Positions 4,436 through 64,000 of a stretch of 64,000 nucleotides of DNA are shown piece after piece (positions within the stretch are counted from its first letter, which is position 1; every line of letters begins with the position of its first letter). The DNA lies in NCBI RefSeq assembly GCF_024700885.2, contig NZ_CP117016.1, one strand, 5' to 3'. The notes below the pieces were generated by a model. That model did not search any database. It had not been told where the DNA came from and saw only the letters and a program-made list of their open reading frames with translations. Made by a program: the position numbers and the translations under genes. This stretch comes from Escherichia coli (GTDB lineage Bacteria > Pseudomonadota > Gammaproteobacteria > Enterobacterales > Enterobacteriaceae).

Positions 4436-4666
4436 ATGCCGTATAAAACGAAAAGCGATCTGCCGGAAAGCGTAAAGCACGTGCTACCGTCTCATGCTCA
4501 GGATATCTATAAAGAAGCGTTCAACAGCGCATGGGATCAATATAAAGATAAAGAAGATCGGCGTGATGACGCCAGTCGCGAAGAAACCGCGCATAAAGTG
4601 GCCTGGGCTGCTGTGAAGCATGAATATGCCAAAGGGGATGATGATAAATGGCATAAAAAATCGTAA
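4436..4666 (+). CDS. chaB: Cation transport regulator ChaB (76 aa)
   Basis: 76-aa ORF MPYKTKSDLPESVKHV... next to chaA; K-12 synteny. Confidence 0.8.
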   Translation: MPYKTKSDLPESVKHVLPSHAQDIYKEAFNSAWDQYKDKEDRRDDASREETAHKVAWAAVKHEYAKGDDDKWHKKS

Positions 4667-4823
4667 AACCGGTAGCTTAGTTAAAGCTATTCGTGCGGTG
4701 TTGCCTTGCAAGTGGTCCGTGGATTGCATATTGTCCCGTTAGTGGTTTCAAAATGAGCAGTAAAAATGTCCGGAAGACACCAAAAAGTTGTCGCAGGGAA
4801 GTATGCAGTGGCGGAGGTGTAAG

Positions 4824-5519
4824 GTGATAACGCGTGATTTCTTGATGAATGCCGATTGTAAAACGGCATTTGGTGCCATTGAAGAATCACTCTTATGGTC
4901 AGCAGAGCAACGGGCGGCTTCGCTGGCGGCGACGCTGGCTTGTCGACCTGATGAGGGACCGGTGTGGATCTTCGGTTATGGATCGTTGATGTGGAATCCG
5001 GCACTGGAGTTTACCGAGTCGTGCACCGGTACACTGGTTGGATGGCATCGTGCGTTTTGCCTGCGCCTGACCGCCGGGCGCGGGACTGCGCACCAGCCGG
5101 GACGGATGCTTGCACTGAAAGAGGGCGGACGCACCACAGGCGTCGCCTATCGACTGCCAGAAGAGGCGCTGGAGCAGGAACTAACCCTGTTGTGGAAGCG
5201 CGAGATGATTACCGGCTGTTATCTGCCAACCTGGTGTCAGCTTGATCTTGATGATGGACGCACAGTAAACGCCATTGTGTTTATTATGGACCCGCGACAT
5301 CCAGAATATGAATCTGACACTCGCGCTCAGGTCATAGCGCCGTTGATTGCGGCGGCGAGCGGTCCGCTGGGAACCAATGCACAATACTTGTTTTCACTGG
5401 AACAGGAGCTTATCAAACTGGGAATGCAGGACGATGGGCTGAATGATTTGCTGGTATCGGTAAAAAAACTGCTGGCGGAGAATTATCCGGATGGTGTGTT
5501 ACGGCCGGGATTCGCCTGA
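4824..5519 (+). CDS. chaC: ChaC, gamma-glutamylcyclotransferase-like protein
   Basis: ORF with YGSLMWNP motif; GTG start at 4824 preceded by GGAGGTG gives 231 aa; track ORF begins 36 nt earlier. Confidence 0.8.
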   Translation: MITRDFLMNADCKTAFGAIEESLLWSAEQRAASLAATLACRPDEGPVWIFGYGSLMWNPALEFTESCTGTLVGWHRAFCLRLTAGRGTAHQPGRMLALKEGGRTTGVAYRLPEEALEQELTLLWKREMITGCYLPTWCQLDLDDGRTVNAIVFIMDPRHPEYESDTRAQVIAPLIAAASGPLGTNAQYLFSLEQELIKLGMQDDGLNDLLVSVKKLLAENYPDGVLRPGFA

Positions 5520-18902: not shown

Positions 18903-19616
18903 TGATGGTGGTGGGGGAAGGATTACTCAGCGCTGCGCGCTTCACCCTTCGGGTCGTTGCCTGCGGCAACGCTTTCTCGCTGGCGCTCGAGTCGCACCTT
19001 GGTCGAAGCTTCTCATCCTTCCCCGCATGGGCAGAATATTTAATTGCGGATTCGTTTGAGAGTTCACGGACTTTTGAAAAGTGATGGTGGTGGGGGAAGG
19101 ATTACTCAGCGCTGCGCGCTTCGCCCTTCGGGTCGTTGCCTGCGGCAACGCTCTCTCGCTGGCGCTCGAGTCGAACCTTGGTCGAAGCTTCTCATCCTTC
19201 CCCGCATGGGCAGAATATTTAATCGCGGATTCGTTTGAGAGTTCACGGACTTTTGAAAGTGATGGTGGTGGGGGAAGGATTACTCAGCGCTGCGCGCTTC
19301 GCCCTTCGGGTCGTTGCCTGCGGCCACGCTCTCTCGTTGGCGCTCGAGTCGAACCTTGGTCGAAGCTTCTCATCCTTCCCCCGCTTGGGCAGAATATTTA
19401 ATTACGGATTCGTTTGAGAGTTCAGGGACTTTTGAAAGTGATGGTGGTGGGGGAAGGATTACTCAGCGCTGCGCGCTTCGCCCTTCGGGTCGTTGCCTGC
19501 GGCCACGCTCTCTCGCTGGCGCTCGAGTCGAACCTTGGTCGAAGCTTCTCATCCTTCCCCGCATGGGCAGAATATTTAATCGCGGATTCGTTTGAGAGTT
19601 CACGGACTTTTGAAAG
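18903..19616. repeat. rtT: Four tandem ~178-bp repeats of the tyrT-operon distal region (rtT/tpr-type), each starting with a copy of the tRNA-Tyr 3' end
   Basis: Units begin at 18903, 19081, 19259 and 19438 (period 178-179 bp, >95% identical); each starts with gtgatggtggtgggggaaggatt, which is the reverse complement of the tRNA-Tyr acceptor/T-arm 3' end. Confidence 0.85.
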
Positions 19617-19619
19617 TGA

Positions 19620-19704
<85 letters not shown>

Positions 19705-19738
19705 AGGGGTAATTCAAATTTTGAGGTAATGCTTGAGA

Positions 19739-19823
<85 letters not shown>

Positions 19824-48670: not shown

Positions 48671-48946
48671 TCAGATTTCACCTTTTAATTTCATTGCAAT
48701 CAGAGTTGCCAGAAATTCGGCTTTTTTTTCTGCGGGCAGATTCTTTCCTATGTGCACCAGACACATTTTTTTAACACCATCGTTAAGTGTTTTAACGTTG
48801 CCTGTTGAACTGTCGATATCAACCACAGTGAATGGGGTTTCTTTATTTTCTGTTTTAATCACGTAGCCAATACGTTTTCCCTCCAGGATAACTTCGAGCA
48901 CAATGCCATCAGTAGTAACAATGGTGGCTTCATAACTGTTAATCAT
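48671..48946 (-). CDS. Hypothetical phage protein (91 aa)
   Basis: ATG at 48946 preceded by AAGGAG at 6-nt spacing (MINSYEATIVTTDGIVLEVILEGKRIGYV...); the 16-codon upstream extension in the track is rejected. Confidence 0.5.
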   Translation of the reverse strand: MINSYEATIVTTDGIVLEVILEGKRIGYVIKTENKETPFTVVDIDSSTGNVKTLNDGVKKMCLVHIGKNLPAEKKAEFLATLIAMKLKGEI

Positions 48947-49020
48947 GTTTTTCTCCTTAATTAAGGTTGAGCGAATCTCTGCCATTGCTGGCATAAATTC
49001 AGTTTTGAATAGTCAGTTAA

Positions 49021-49308
49021 TTAAAGTTCGTGTGCCATCTGGTATTTTTCGGCGCATTGCTTACAGCAGTATTTATGCTCCTTACGTGCAATAAGGGAAC
49101 CGTGCATATAAATAATTTCAGCGGTAAAGGCTTTTTCAGGTTCAATTTGTTTATTACAGAGCGTATATGCACAGGGAATTAAATCCGGGTCACCCTTTTG
49201 CTGGAGGATTTTTCTGATTCTCCACAGCCATTTTTTAATTCCGGTGTGACTGATGGTCTGCCTGGAGGCAGGCGTAAAACAATAATCAAGCATGGGGTTC
49301 ATATCCAT
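49021..49308 (-). CDS. Hypothetical Cys-rich phage protein (95 aa), possible zinc-binding
   Basis: ORF with clustered cysteines (PCAYTLC, KYCCKQC); same strand and operon context as neighbours. Confidence 0.4.
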   Translation of the reverse strand: MDMNPMLDYCFTPASRQTISHTGIKKWLWRIRKILQQKGDPDLIPCAYTLCNKQIEPEKAFTAEIIYMHGSLIARKEHKYCCKQCAEKYQMAHEL

Positions 49309-49318
49309 AGCTCCATTT

Positions 49319-49873
49319 TTATTTTAAGGAAAGCAACTGCTCTACGGTCATATTTTTAATTGCGCTCCGGTTTACAAGAGTCCAGCCTTGTTGCTCCAGA
49401 TAAAACAGGAAGGTATCCAGGGTGCAGACCATTGCGCCGTCAGGAACGGTTTCAGTGAATTTGATATTGCCGTGTTCGTCGAGACGGATAACCAGGGTGC
49501 GTCCGTCCCCGTGAATCATTTTGTCGGGAGACGGGGCGTTATTCTGGCGCAGTTCAGCTTCCATGCGGTCGAACTCAGCAATGTATGCCTCTTTAAATGC
49601 AGCGGCTTTTTTGCCAGTGAAGCCCATCACCAGGAAAACGAAGCCGTTTTTGGTGATTTGGTACATTGGGAGTTTGCGCCCGGTTGAGTCGGTGTATTCG
49701 CTCGACACAAAATTGTGCTCAGTGAATTTTGCTGAACAGTCCAGATTGCGAATTTTATCCAACACTCGTTCGTGGCGTTTGCCAAAGAACTCGGCGATCG
49801 CAACAGACGTAGTGACAGCGCGACCATTTTCGATGGTTACGTCAGGGTGAGAAAGGGTAAGGATAGTAGCCAT
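49319..49873 (-). CDS. Rha-family phage regulatory protein (184 aa)
   Basis: ATG at 49873 preceded by GGAGG; N-terminal motif VTTSVAIAEFFGKRHERVLDKIRNL and downstream PMYQITKNGFVFLVMGFTGKKAAAFKEAYIAEFDRME match the pRha pattern. The 100-codon upstream extension of the track ORF reads through a terminator hairpin and is rejected. Confidence 0.65.
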   Translation of the reverse strand: MATILTLSHPDVTIENGRAVTTSVAIAEFFGKRHERVLDKIRNLDCSAKFTEHNFVSSEYTDSTGRKLPMYQITKNGFVFLVMGFTGKKAAAFKEAYIAEFDRMEAELRQNNAPSPDKMIHGDGRTLVIRLDEHGNIKFTETVPDGAMVCTLDTFLFYLEQQGWTLVNRSAIKNMTVEQLLSLK

Positions 49874-50042
49874 GATGGCAGCCTCCGCGATGAATTTGAT
49901 TAACTCACCACCGAGGTTTTCCACGACCATAAGGGTGGTGAGACGTACAGGGGTGGAAATACCGGTCATCACGGAACCCGGCCAGCCTTGCGGCTGCCCT
50001 GCACGCCCCACCATAATGCGAATGTGGCTGTGCTTAACGCAT

Positions 50043-50064
50043 AAAAAAACCGCCTGAGCGCGGT
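50043..50064 (-). terminator. Rho-independent terminator downstream of the DicF-like sRNA
   Basis: On the minus strand, aaccgcgctcaggcggtt hairpin followed by TTTTTTT. Confidence 0.55.
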
Positions 50065-50352
50065 TATGCGCCGTGAATGATTTCGGGTTTCCACGCCCGG
50101 CACCCGTTTTATGAGGTGCAGGTGCACTATAATTCCACCCGTTCTGGTTTTCAATAGCTACATTCAACATTTTCTCTACCTTTCATCACCGAAGTGAACT
50201 TTGTTGATGCGGTGCCTGGTGCCTCCAGGTGATGTTAACCAGTTAACAATTAACGCCGGATACAGAGAATCCACCCATAACACTGTTTTTGGTTTTAACT
50301 GTTCCGCGTGCGCTGAGCCGCATTCACCGCATCACAAAATTCACTTTAAAAA

Positions 50353-50405
50353 GGGCGGCAGAGCAGTCACGGAGTAAAACTGATACCGCCAAAAGTCACC
50401 AGAAA
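50353..50405 (-). ncRNA. dicF: DicF-like sRNA (cell-division inhibitor sRNA of Qin-type prophages)
   Basis: Minus-strand 53 nt TTTCTGGTGACTTTTGGCGGTATCAGTTTTACTCCGTGACTGCTCTGCCGCCC differs at one position from the K-12 DicF sequence as I recall it; followed by a T-run. Confidence 0.65.
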
Positions 50406-50737
50406 ATTGATAACAGAGGGCGTTGCAGCGGAGTTGTCACTTAAGCGTATGGTCAACCTGACAACCCGGTGTCCTCAACGGGGGAAGGAATAACCCCGCC
50501 ATACTTACCGCCGCGCCATTTCGCGGAGTGCCACAACCGGAAGCGCACGGTCGAACTAAATTTAACGACACCGTACAGAGAGACCAATTTCGCCGTGCGC
50601 TTTCGCGTTATGCCCTGACTTTTCAGGGACATATCCTTTCAGTAAACTGTCAGTGCCGGATGTTCACCCGTGTCCGGCGCACGCACTCCACCTGACCCGT
50701 GGAGAACTCCTTAATTACCAACCCTCAGGAGGGTGAA

Positions 50738-51016
50738 ATGGATAAAAAGCAAATTGAGGCCCTGCAATCTATTATTGAAAAACAAGATGAAGCTATCAGG
50801 ATTCTTTCATATCGCACTGATATGATACTAAATATGCTTTCTGCATTAACGGCTGCGCTTGGTGGTACAAAAACAAACGTATACCGCGAAGTTGTTATTC
50901 AACAGATAGATAAATTTGAAAAAACCATACCAGGTATTAATGCTCATCTTGCAGAACAAGAGAAAGACCATGCTCTTATGGCAATTTCTTCAGTAGCTCT
51001 CCCGAAAGTTGAGTAG
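50738..51016 (+). CDS. Hypothetical AT-rich cargo protein (92 aa), convergent to the neighbouring minus-strand operon
   Basis: ATG at 50738 preceded by AGGAGG at 6-nt spacing (MDKKQIEALQSIIEKQDEAIRILSYRTDMILNMLSALTAALGG...); local GC is clearly below the flanks; 3' end overlaps the convergent 137-aa gene by 41 nt. Confidence 0.5.
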   Translation: MDKKQIEALQSIIEKQDEAIRILSYRTDMILNMLSALTAALGGTKTNVYREVVIQQIDKFEKTIPGINAHLAEQEKDHALMAISSVALPKVE

Positions 51017-51389
51017 TTTTAATTGTTGTTTTGAAATAATCACTGCTTTCACATTTGAGTGATTTCATGGCAATCCAAATGCGGGCCTCTGTGCCTGCAT
51101 TTGGTTCCAGTTGCTGTAGACGTTTTGCGTCTTCCAAAAGTAAGGCGATAATGTGTTTCAGCTTCTCATCATTTGCTTGATTCTTGTTTTCAGGCGAATT
51201 CTGTCCGCCGAATAGGCGCTTCTCTTCATACAGACCTATAAAGGCACGACGCACGTTACCGGATATAGTATCGATGGTTTCCTTTTCTACAGTACTCAGG
51301 TCAAGAGTCGCCAGTTGAGAGCGAACCACATTCGATGCCATTTCCTGGAATGGTACTGGTAAATCTTTAAATTCCATCGTCAACCTCAT
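50976..51389 (-). CDS. Hypothetical phage protein (137 aa; alternative start at 51377 after GAGG)
   Basis: ORF whose ATG overlaps the stop of the upstream gene (ATGA), suggesting translational coupling. Confidence 0.5.
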   Translation of the reverse strand: MRLTMEFKDLPVPFQEMASNVVRSQLATLDLSTVEKETIDTISGNVRRAFIGLYEEKRLFGGQNSPENKNQANDEKLKHIIALLLEDAKRLQQLEPNAGTEARIWIAMKSLKCESSDYFKTTIKTTQLSGELLKKLP

Positions 51390-51541
51390 CAGTCAGTGTT
51401 TCTGGTTAACCAGCGACGTGCGCCAGCTTCAGTTTTAAACGTTTTGCTTCTGGTATATGTCATCGCGGTAAACGTGCCGTCCTGGTTGGGAAACACGCCG
51501 CATACCAGAGATTCGTTGTTGCCAAGCTCGATAGTATCCAT
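51389..51541 (-). CDS. Small YdfA-like protein (50 aa)
   Basis: ATG at 51541 preceded by GAGG (MDTIELGNNESLVCGVFPNQDGTFTAMTYTRSKTFKTEAGARRWLTRNTD); it is the first gene after the repressor terminator, as ydfA follows dicA in Qin. The track ORF extends 27 codons upstream. Confidence 0.45.
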   Translation of the reverse strand: MDTIELGNNESLVCGVFPNQDGTFTAMTYTRSKTFKTEAGARRWLTRNTD

Positions 51542-51783
51542 GCTGACCTCATTTCCCCTTAACGCCGGGGTAGCGGAACAAAAACCTGCTGCATAGTTAT
51601 TAAAGTTGAACCCTGCCGTCATGTTCTTACGCCTCGGGCTGGCTACTTACCCCCTGACCACTGCTTGGTAACTCGAAGTATTGCCCGGCGTTCTGTGGGG
51701 CGGGGTGGGTTGGTATGTTGTTAAGGTAACAAGAGTTACCTTTCGAGTCAATACAATGTTGCAAAAGGTACATTTGAGGGCAT

Positions 51784-51807
51784 AAAAAACCCGCAATGAA
51801 TGCGGGT
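51784..51807 (-). terminator. Rho-independent terminator immediately after the cI-like repressor gene
   Basis: On the minus strand, acccgcattcattgcgggt hairpin followed by TTTTTTAT, starting 7 nt after the repressor stop. Confidence 0.6.
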
Positions 51808-51813
51808 TCTGAC

Positions 51814-52488
51814 TCAGTCTAAGTATTGATGTATTTGTGAAACTTTACCTTTAATGGTGTAACCACCATTCAGTTCGATGGGTTTGTAAAGCGGATTCAG
51901 TGACAACAGATAGATGTTTGGTCCGTCAATCGCAACTTTTTTTAGTGTTACGTTTGGCGTTCCTTCCAATTGGATTAAGATTATTTTTCCCACCAGTTCT
52001 CTAATGTTACTTGAGCATGGTGTGATCAGCACGGTAGATCCGTCGGGGATGGTTGGGAGGCCGTTAGAGTTTGTCATCGCATCTCCCTCAACATGCAATA
52101 AAAAAGAGTTTTCAGCGGTTTTTGTCATGACATCAACCCAGTTCTTAATACCAGGAATCTTGGTTACTGGACAACTCATATCCCAATAACCAGCCTGTTC
52201 CCACGTTAAAACGGGCAACCGGGCGATGTTGTCACTAATGTAAGGGTACTGATTCAGACGCAGATCATCGGTTTTATCGTGACCGTCCTTTCCATAAAGA
52301 ATCCATTCAGGAGATTTGGAAAGCAATTTTGACAGTAGATACAAATTCTCACCGTCAGGTTTTGAAGAGCCATTTTCCCATTTTGTTACGGATACACGAG
52401 ATATGCCGATTGCTTTCGCAACCTGCTGTTGGGTTAATCCAACGTCTTTTCGACGATTCCGAATACGTTCGCTGATAGTGTTTTTCAT
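51814..52488 (-). CDS. cI: CI-like prophage repressor (HTH_XRE plus S24 LexA-like peptidase domain)
   Basis: N-terminal XRE HTH (GLTQQQVAKAIGISRVSVTKWENG) and C-terminal S24-like domain; divergent from the cro-like gene. Start chosen at ATG 52488 (MKNTISERIR..., 224 aa, no SD, compatible with a leaderless PRM-type transcript); alternative start at 52530. Confidence 0.8.
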   Translation of the reverse strand: MKNTISERIRNRRKDVGLTQQQVAKAIGISRVSVTKWENGSSKPDGENLYLLSKLLSKSPEWILYGKDGHDKTDDLRLNQYPYISDNIARLPVLTWEQAGYWDMSCPVTKIPGIKNWVDVMTKTAENSFLLHVEGDAMTNSNGLPTIPDGSTVLITPCSSNIRELVGKIILIQLEGTPNVTLKKVAIDGPNIYLLSLNPLYKPIELNGGYTIKGKVSQIHQYLD

Positions 52489-52550
52489 GTAACCAATGTT
52501 ACTACCAAGTGATGTTGCTATGGTTGACATTGTTATGTAACTATTGTTAC
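52489..52550. promoter_or_regulatory. Putative operator/divergent-promoter region between cI and cro
   Basis: Two 14-bp inverted repeats of the same form, GTAACCAATGTTAC (52489-52502) and GTAACTATTGTTAC (52537-52550), plus a TTGACA hexamer at 52524-52529. Confidence 0.4.
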
Positions 52551-52579
52551 CCTTCTGCTCGAAATAACAGGAGAGTTTT

Positions 52580-52795
52580 ATGTTCAAAGATGATGTTCTG
52601 CGCTATTTCAAAAAAAAGCGACTAGTAGCTGAGGCTCTTGGAATTTCACATGTGGCTGTTGTGCGGTGGAAAGCAGTTATTCCCAAACTTCGCGCAATGG
52701 AACTGGATGAAATTACTAACGGTGAATTGAAATACAACCCAGAACTTTACAAGAAGCAGGATAGCACCTCGAACGAAGGAAAGAATGATTCATGA
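52580..52795 (+). CDS. cro: Cro-like / YdaS-family HTH regulator (71 aa)
   Basis: Small HTH ORF (RLVAEALGISHVAVVRWKAVIP) divergent from cI; AGGAG RBS; stop overlaps the next gene (ATGA). Confidence 0.7.
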   Translation: MFKDDVLRYFKKKRLVAEALGISHVAVVRWKAVIPKLRAMELDEITNGELKYNPELYKKQDSTSNEGKNDS

Positions 52796-58012: not shown

Positions 58013-58223
58013 TTTCATATTGGCGAGGTGACGGGAGTTAAGTAGAATGGCTGCGGGTGCTTGAGGCTATCTGTCTCAGGCATGAACACCAAAGGCAGAT
58101 AGAGAAAAGCCCCAGTTAACATTACGCGTCCTGCAAGACGCTTAACATTAATCTGAGGCCATATCTATGCTCTACACACGTAGGTTAGCCTCTTACGTGC
58201 CGAAAGGCAAGGAGAAGCAGGCT

Positions 58224-58379
58224 ATGAAGCAGCAAAAGGCGATGCTAATCGCCCTGATCGTCATCTGTTTAACCGTCATGGTGACGGCACTGGTAACGAG
58301 GAAAGACCTCTGCGAGGTACGAATCCGAACCGGCCAGACGGAGGTCGCTGTCTTCACAGCTTACGAACCTGAGGAGTAA
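58224..58379 (+). CDS. hok: Hok/Gef-family type I toxin (51 aa), near-identical to HokD/RelF
   Basis: MKQQKAMLIALIVICLTVMVTALVTRKDLCEVRIRTGQTEVAVFTAYEPEE; the in-frame upstream extension in the track (from 58167) is not the toxin start. Confidence 0.85.
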   Translation: MKQQKAMLIALIVICLTVMVTALVTRKDLCEVRIRTGQTEVAVFTAYEPEE

Positions 58380-62757: not shown

Positions 62758-62833
62758 GGCCCTTTAGCTCAGTGGTGAGAGCGAGCGACTCATAATCGCC
62801 AGGTCGCTGGTTCAAATCCAGCAAGGGCCACCA
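62758..62833 (+). tRNA. Prophage tRNA with CAU anticodon (Ile2/lysidine-type, ileZ-like; Met not excluded)
   Basis: 76 nt folding into a cloverleaf by hand: acceptor GGCCCTT/AAGGGCC, D-stem GCTC/GAGC, anticodon loop CTCATAA, T-arm GCTGG-TTCAAAT-CCAGC, 3' ACCA. Confidence 0.8.
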
Positions 62834-62933
62834 TCACAAACCGCCATTAGCTTATCAGGAAGAGCAGACGACACGATAACAGGGTTGTTGGTGCGGGGGC
62901 GGGTCCCCGATGGCGGTCCATTATCGGTATTCA

Positions 62934-63010
62934 GCGTTGTTAGCTCAGCCGGACAGAGCAATTGCCTTCTAAGCAATCGGTCACTGGTTCGAATCCAGTA
63001 CAGCGCGCCA
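62934..63010 (+). tRNA. Prophage tRNA-Arg (UCU)
   Basis: 77 nt: acceptor GCGTTGT/ACAGCGC, D-arm TAGCTCAGCCGGACAGAGCA, anticodon loop CTTCTAA, T-arm ACTGG-TTCGAAT-CCAGT, 3' GCCA; related to argU-type tRNAs. Confidence 0.8.
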
Positions 63011-63474: not shown

Positions 63475-64000
63475 ATACATATCTGGATTATCACCGGTTA
63501 CGGTAAAAAGTGATTGCTTACTGTTTTTGTGAATGGCATTGCAGCAGCCGGATAATGTCAGTGCTGGCTGACGGTGTGCTGGTGGCGGGTGTGGTGGTTG
63601 CTGCTTTCCCGTTGCTGAAAAAGAAAACGCCAGACTGTTAGCCGGGTATCAGTTAGCGGGAGAAATTTTTAAATACTTCACAATTCAGGCGGTTGACTGT
63701 TGTCTGGTTTGCGGGGAGTTTGTTAAAAGAAACTGGCATGGTGAATCCCCCTGTGCGGAGGGGCAATCAGCGAGTAGGTATATGGGATAATCGCGGATTC
63801 AGGTGCTGGTACTGAATTCACCGGGAGGCACCCGGCACCATGCAATGGCACATAGCGCCACTCTCCAGCCCCTCTCCGGAGGGGCTGTTTATATTGATTT
63901 TGTCAGATGTGAGTAAACTCCTTATGGACTTTGTTGTTTTAGCCCATAAGGACATATTTGCAGAGTGCAACGGTTATTAAAGCATTCATTCAATACGTTA

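Follow-up and report, generated by a model that had tools for sequence, protein, structure and literature searches.

The most satisfactory explanation of the locus that we analyzed, and in our judgment very probably the correct one, is that dicF lies here in an early-left operon of the Rac/Qin type, that the dicB slot has been taken by a module of the small RNA (sRNA) IsrK, the antisense RNA C4, and an antirepressor gene (IsrK-C4-ant), and that a 59-codon basic open reading frame (ORF) near dicF is spurious. The locus is a known sRNA in a recurrent mosaic variant. It lies in a stretch of 64,000 nucleotides of the Escherichia coli chromosome (here called the window), roughly the last 18 kb of which are filled by a lambdoid prophage. 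The biogenesis of DicF has been described previously (PMC9438474), as have its targets and multiple contexts (PMC5069750).

Where in the prophage is dicF located? The genome of strain MLI114, with 100% identity in this region, carries, in RefSeq order, a Cro/CI-type regulator, a LexA-family repressor, a DUF1391 (ydfA-like) gene, two hypothetical genes, a "DicB pseudogene," a Rha family regulator, a YdaE family gene, a hypothetical gene, an exonuclease, an excisionase, an integrase, and ompW. This gene order places dicF in the early-left operon of a prophage of the Rac/Qin type, integrated beside ompW. The first gene of this operon is the ydfA-like DUF1391 gene at 51389-51541 on the minus strand (-), with 88% identity to YdfA (tblastn, E 4e-27). 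YdfB and YdfC had no tblastn match in the window, and the ydfABC set found upstream of dicF in Qin is not present. RefSeq annotates a CI-like LexA-family repressor at 51814-52530(-), the gene for which is flanked by operator-like palindromes (GGTAAC-N4-GTTACC) at 51725-51739 (left) and 52537-52551 (right). The left palindrome overlies a putative left promoter (TTGACT at ~51743), the right one lies in the cI-cro spacer, and an intrinsic terminator is located 3' of the repressor gene (~51785-51810). The putative left promoter (TTGACT-17-TACCTT) is a weak consensus match that was read by eye and is absent from the output of the promoter scan. Inside the early-left operon on the opposite strand is a 92-amino-acid (aa) gene with a good GGAGG ribosome-binding site (RBS) (50738-51016(+), PHROG 18692), which is convergent with a 133-aa gene (50976-51377(-)); the two share 41 nt at the 3' end of the 133-aa gene. 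To yield DicF, the operon transcript must run antisense through the 92-aa gene.

Is the sRNA gene a genuine copy of dicF? The earlier note had recognized it as matching DicF at 52 of 53 positions, and this call was borne out by comparison with Rfam and with K-12. The Rfam covariance model RF00039 scored 75.8 bits at 50353-50404(-) (gathering score, 48; E 6e-15 for the window), and the match spans the full model (positions 1 to 52), as expected for a member of the DicF family. Direct alignment with K-12 dicF (NC_000913.3, 1649382-1649434) gave 52/53 identities, the sole difference being G12 to T (G12U in the RNA). The 3' hairpin and its U-run (50348-50352(-)), which make up the terminator/Hfq-binding module, fold at -15.9 kcal/mol (z -3.1). 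Nucleotides 13 to 53, which include the ftsZ-complementary 3' region (defined as in PMC5069750), are identical to K-12, and the sequence flanking the 5' processing site is invariant among 25 homologues. Judged by sequence, the 53-nt gene at 50353-50405(-) is a genuine dicF copy and looks functional.

We then asked what stands in the place of dicB. Downstream of dicF is a sigma-70-type promoter (TTGAAA-17-TATAGT, 50126-50154(-)) that was the best match (10/12) in the interval 49300-52700. From the end of its -10 hexamer it is 7 nt to the 5' end of an IsrK-like sRNA at 50043-50119(-) (Rfam RF01394, 67.7 bits; gathering score, 50), a spacing that fits the Rfam start of IsrK at 50119. The sRNA ends in an intrinsic terminator with a stem and a T-run (50065-50048(-)). 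The terminator that the earlier note had placed at 50043-50064 is thus real, but it corresponds to the 3' end of IsrK (RF01394) and not to the end of the dicF transcription unit. The middle block of IsrK mimics the target of C4, and Rfam gives a weak match to the c4-a1b1 motif that overlaps the sRNA. The RNA has the attributes of IsrK throughout: a score above the gathering score, its own promoter, an intrinsic terminator, complementarity to sequence downstream, and a Rha-type antirepressor gene next to it.

The second element is a C4-type antisense RNA at 49931-50018(-) (Rfam RF01695, 81.9 bits; gathering score, 45), the fold of which has an energy of -47.3 kcal/mol (z -4.4). This stretch is the sequence that was read as orf45 in the work on Gifsy-1; c4 is unmentioned in the Gifsy-1 IsrK paper (PMC4825925). 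Through its loop and the stem beside it, C4 is complementary to UCAUCGCGGAGGCUGCC, a site in the leader of the antirepressor gene (49877-49893(-)) that covers the Shine-Dalgarno sequence GGAGG, 4 nt before the ATG at 49873, and the C4-leader duplex was more stable than 299 of 300 shuffles. The RNA at 49931-50018 therefore shows both marks of the C4 family, an Rfam match above the gathering score and complementarity between its loop and the RBS region of ant. The antirepressor gene itself, of the Rha/AnrP type, encodes 184 aa from ATG 49873 (49319-49873(-); TIGR02681 phage_pRha, E 3e-31), and the protein also matches PHROG antirepressor families. RefSeq gives instead a Rha coding sequence (CDS) of 283 aa (49319-50170(-)), with a start at 50170 that lies upstream of the IsrK promoter and a frame that reads through IsrK and C4. 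In L077, a divergent relative, the long N-terminal frame is not preserved. Translation of Rha likely starts at ATG 49873, with the C4-targeted GGAGG, or at an orf45-like ATG near 50012, whose frame here continues into the antirepressor. Taken together, the elements of the dicB slot form an intact and autonomous IsrK-C4-antirepressor cassette.

Comparison among 123 C4-bearing IMG/VR loci (including L130 to L205, L077, L079, L090, and L097) revealed 13 distinct C4 loops, each accompanied by corresponding changes in the leader of the antirepressor gene and the IsrK middle block, a three-way covariation. Cognate duplexes between C4 and the leader were more stable than non-cognate ones (-14.9 versus -6.0 kcal/mol), and the same was true of those between C4 and IsrK (-11.9 versus -4.3 kcal/mol). 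These data give strong comparative support to the view that C4 would mask the antirepressor RBS and that IsrK carries a copy of the target. By analogy, the 13 covarying classes look like the immI heteroimmunity classes of the P1/P7 type, here in lambdoid prophages.

The sRNA gene is enclosed in a non-coding block of ~530 bp (50723-50195) with 93% identity to the ydfC-dicB intergenic region of K-12 Qin (532 nt). The K-12 counterpart (locus L002, 2563-3092) starts 21 nt past the stop codon of ydfC and reaches to within 18 nt of the ATG of dicB, where the homology ends. At 90 to 97% identity, this block is found again, with unchanged ends, in loci with differing flanking genes, and the columns from ~50620 to 50195 are mostly invariant among 25 diverse sequences with unrelated flanks. 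Downstream, the block ends at a recurrent recombination joint (50192-50195) that is common to at least three types of cargo. On the upstream side of DicF is a conserved non-coding leader of ~320 nt (50406-50723(-)), homologous to the K-12 ydfC-dicF intergenic region. On the downstream side is a conserved multi-hairpin trailer of ~155 nt (50195-50352(-)), which in K-12 is the dicB 5' untranslated region (UTR). In the consensus fold, the trailer hairpins are closed by a 10-bp helix (50334-50325 with 50214-50205), in which we observed changes from G-C to G-U to A-U pairs; the single-sequence fold has a z of -2.5. A 72-nt RNase III species of DicF has been reported (PMC9438474), and we infer that the closing helix starts where this species would end. 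RNAalifold gave plausible helices in leader and trailer, with double changes at only 1 and 6 pairs, respectively, the sequences being too conserved for covariation.

Several further observations concern the two flanks. A permissive scan of 49300-51500 found no Rfam family in the leader. The part of the leader at 50406-50655(-) is near-invariant across prophages with unrelated upstream genes, and a predicted long helix surrounds a hypervariable segment (~50545-50580). In the trailer, 50195-50341(-) gave a sub-threshold match to STnc100 (32 bits, E 1e-4); a hairpin, UCACCNGGAGGCACCNGGCACC, and the outer helix are common to the DicF trailer and STnc100. A full STnc100 copy (132 bits) is located in the same prophage at 63707-63896(+), downstream of two tRNA genes (62758-63007).

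Could the ~530-nt block be a single RNA cassette, portable and functional, instead of the sum of a ydfC 3' UTR and a dicB 5' UTR? On this reading it would consist of a leader of ~250 to 320 nt that hardly varies, the sRNA, and a trailer of ~140 nt with several hairpins, closed by the 10-bp helix. The argument for this reading is that the sequence of the block is retained through exchanges of the genes to either side and that it ends at a fixed joint. If it were true, leader and trailer could serve as a scaffold for processing or as additional riboregulators, and read-through past DicF would add an IsrK-type decoy that titrates C4, which would couple the division block to release of the antirepressor. 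We put this reading forward tentatively and consider it, with these further parts, rather unlikely.

How might this copy of dicF act? Its transcription, processing, and activity can be outlined by analogy with K-12. Once the CI-like repressor is inactivated, transcription would start at the left promoter and cross the ydfA-like gene and then the leader; a fraction of the transcripts would terminate at the DicF hairpin and U-run, and RNase E would trim the 5' end to yield a 53-nt Hfq-dependent RNA, the unchanged 3' half of which would block translation of ftsZ. The IsrK-C4-antirepressor module past the joint is a separate unit, with its own promoter and with C4 complementary to the antirepressor RBS. 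DicF is reported to target ftsZ mRNA, and DicB is reported to target MinC/ZipA (PMC5069750). Because DicB acts separately through MinC/ZipA, the absence of dicB should leave DicF unimpaired. The suggestion that the sRNA may act alone is reasonable in light of these different targets, but it does not make the locus special.

An alternative to a working division inhibitor is that the copy is silent or functionally shifted, either G12U or the lost dicB context having inactivated or re-targeted it. Position 12 lies within the 5' arm used for xylR and pykA (PMC5069750), and the T12 allele is rare (3 of 122 IMG/VR loci; A in 17 and G in most). With a simple duplex model, which takes no account of intramolecular structure, the predicted duplex with xylR is weaker in the window than in K-12 (-27.9 versus -33.7 kcal/mol), a difference of ~6 kcal/mol that arises because G12 pairs with C in xylR, whereas the predicted duplex with K-12 ftsZ is little changed (-37.1 versus -38.5 kcal/mol). 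G12U is thus predicted to weaken pairing with xylR through the 5' arm. Against inactivation, however, the ftsZ-pairing 3' region, the terminator hairpin, and the flanking processing context are those of K-12, and position 12, in lower case in the Rfam consensus, is where the family varies naturally (G, A, or T). We therefore regard a silent or re-targeted DicF as improbable and retain the reading in which this copy would still act on ftsZ.

Is dicB really missing? The earlier note had found no DicB-like ORF between dicF and the terminator, and tblastn searches of all six frames bore this out, both for 50065-50352 and for the rest of the window: the best match to K-12 DicB and to the divergent DicB of E. 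coli 042 in the whole 64 kb had an E of 0.87. The same six-frame searches of the 64-kb window gave no homologue of Rac-type Kil or YdfD. A dicB gene (Pfam PF05358) directly downstream of dicF, as in Qin, is accordingly not found. The statement that the longest frame has about 26 codons overlooked two ORFs, one of 35 codons with a GTG start (50176-50283) and one of 283 codons with an ATG start at 50170, which passes through the terminator and is the Rha protein of RefSeq. Neither of the two resembles DicB.

RefSeq nevertheless labels 50200-50283(-) as "DicB, incomplete, missing C-terminus" in the genome that is 100% identical over the finding. The K-12 stretch equivalent to 50200-50283 lies upstream of dicB, in frame with it, and translates as VLWVDSLYPALIVNWLTSPGGTRH.... 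Database "DicB" records of 94 to 114 aa begin (M)VLWVDSLYPALIVNWLTSPGGTRH..., that is, with the same upstream extension. We therefore rejected the pseudogene, which matches only this in-frame 5'-UTR extension and 0 of the 62 DicB residues; the label is an annotation artefact of over-long DicB records.

These results bear on whether the locus is a decayed dicBF operon, in which dicB was lost by deletion or mutation and a pseudogene remnant was left beside a stranded dicF. The RefSeq label would fit such a history, as would the position of dicB at +228 in most DicF loci. However, the presumed remnant contains none of the 62-aa DicB and stands equally upstream of the intact dicB of K-12. The replacement also starts at the joint that at least three types of cargo have in common. 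The cassette that took the place of dicB is intact, with a promoter of its own, two RNAs at the Rfam level, and Rha at full length, and 314 complete genomes show the same arrangement. Decay is already largely refuted by these data, and we give it very little chance of being correct. Of the two descriptions offered in the earlier note, a decayed or a variant dicBF operon, "variant" stands and "decayed" does not, given an intact autonomous cassette at a joint used for dicB and for other cargo. Because the conserved block stops 18 nt before the start of dicB and a separate module comes next, the absence of dicB is best read as modular recombination at a recurrent joint, that is, as ordinary prophage mosaicism.

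How frequent is this arrangement? Counted per genome, the DicF block is present in 4,093 of 5,426 complete E. coli genomes; it is contiguous with dicB in 3,984 and with IsrK-C4-ant in 314 (~6%). The number of DicF places per E. coli genome has a median of 2 and a maximum of 10. Among 105 IMG/VR DicF loci with enough downstream sequence, dicB was found at +228 in 94, IsrK-C4 in 4, and other cargo in 7. Viewed from the other side, DicF lies within 1.6 kb upstream at 13 of 125 C4 loci, and the IsrK-C4-antirepressor cassette is seen without DicF in Stx2 phages. A scan of species-representative genomes for the DicF core gave only 2 loci, an uninformative outcome, and the frequencies given here come from IMG/VR and the complete E. 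coli genomes. DicF blocks are also present in isolated phages such as Evi, Tritos, and mEp460 and in records of ompW-site prophages (PPompW).

Exchange of genes is also observed beyond the antirepressor. E. coli 042 is 98% identical to the window over 51377-49332 and then has dicB and a DUF1482 (ydfD-like) gene, and IHE3034 has kil in the slot after the antirepressor. In the window, this slot holds YdaE-family and RacC-like (PRK09790) genes, and this prophage therefore has no recognizable protein division inhibitor. DicF is the only recognizable division inhibitor of the early-left operon in this prophage. The alternating slot spans 48671-49308(-) in the window, 4465-4686 in locus L128, and 4451-4839 in locus L129.

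What is the basic ORF upstream of dicF? An ORF of 59 codons with an ATG start is present at 50453-50632(-), as had been described, and lies within the conserved DicF leader. It had been assigned to the ydfC-equivalent position, but it aligns to the non-coding K-12 stretch between ydfC and dicF. At this site K-12 has ATT for ATG and stops at codons 16 and 21, and thus no ORF. Among 99 distinct homologous sequences (115 loci), 76 lack the start codon and contain in-frame stops, and start, frame, and C-terminus are all preserved in 9. The length differences between homologues are mostly -1, +1, or +2 nt, not multiples of three, and the variable sites fall at codon positions 1, 2, and 3 in the numbers 18, 15, and 13, with no third-position excess. 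Neither conservation of start and frame nor a third-position bias, as expected of protein-coding sequence, is observed.

Annotation of the ORF is divided. It has a full-length match to PHROG 8854 (E 1e-42), a family built from predicted proteins, and RefSeq has a CDS of 64 aa here in E. coli 042, with a frameshifted C-terminus; some annotators therefore treat the ORF as a gene. Conversely, no NCBIfam family matches it, and of 30 genomes chosen to span the identity range, nearly all have no RefSeq CDS at the ORF. The RBS is weak, as the earlier note itself had said, and conservation is higher at the nucleotide level than in any of the frames, a pattern typical of RNA or DNA elements that have a function. 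On frame conservation we rejected the ORF as a gene, the PHROG match notwithstanding; what had been presented as an unannotated basic ORF is a chance frame, broken in most homologues, in a non-coding element conserved at the RNA level. That it is a genuine early-left gene for a small basic protein, despite the open frame, the family match, the 042 annotation, and the few homologues that keep it, is hardly credible.

The locus can be compared with three known systems. With the dicBF operon of K-12 Qin (ydfABC-dicF-dicB-ydfD) it shares the sRNA, the ~530-bp block, the ydfA-like first gene, and the place in a repressor-controlled early-left operon. Unlike Qin, the window lacks ydfB, ydfC, dicB, and ydfD and has the 133-aa gene and the convergent 92-aa gene before the block and the IsrK-C4-antirepressor cassette after it. 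With isrK-orf45-anrP of Salmonella Gifsy-1, a locus studied by experiment (PMC4825925), it shares a dedicated promoter, a 77-nt IsrK, a leaky intrinsic terminator, a conserved stretch of ~90 nt complementary to the middle of IsrK, and a Rha-type antirepressor downstream. In contrast to Gifsy-1, the orf45-like frame of the window is fused in frame to the antirepressor without a stop (a fusion noted for S. dysenteriae in the same paper, PMC4825925), the cassette is directly downstream of DicF, and the specificity sequence of IsrK and C4 differs.

The third system is immI (c4-icd-ant) of P1/P7, with the C4 and c4-a1b1 motifs of Rfam (PMC2864571). In both, C4 precedes an antirepressor gene and has two complementary sites, one over the downstream RBS and the other upstream of C4, and specificity classes are defined by the loop. 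The window differs in being a lambdoid rather than a plasmid prophage and in having the upstream target copy packaged as a terminated sRNA (IsrK); we recognized no separate icd gene in the cassette of the window. Multiple copies of DicF in several contexts have been reported from the prophages of EHEC O157:H7 and other E. coli (PMC5069750, PMC7873438), whereas IsrK-C4-antirepressor as the downstream neighbor is not described there. In the literature that we searched, we found no paper that links DicF and IsrK by position.

DicF, its many prophage contexts and multi-copy state, IsrK, C4, and Rha antirepressors are all known already, and the locus contains little new biology. Its value lies in part in annotation. 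RefSeq "DicB pseudogene" calls at such loci stem from over-long DicB reference proteins, the RefSeq start of Rha spans two RNA genes, DicF, IsrK, and C4 are all unannotated, and the basic ORF of PHROG 8854 should not count as a protein. It also follows that ~6% of complete E. coli genomes have DicF directly upstream of an antirepressor switch under antisense control. The more interesting by-products of the analysis are the 13 covarying classes of IsrK, C4, and antirepressor and the high degree of conservation seen in the non-coding sequence on either side of DicF.

Elsewhere in the window, Rfam-level RNAs, listed jointly at 2173-2774, 18906-19823, and 58055-58229, included two rdlD antitoxin RNAs, four tandem RtT repeats, and, inside the prophage, a sok antitoxin RNA. 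The RtT repeats together with two tRNA genes form a K-12-like tyrT region in the window.
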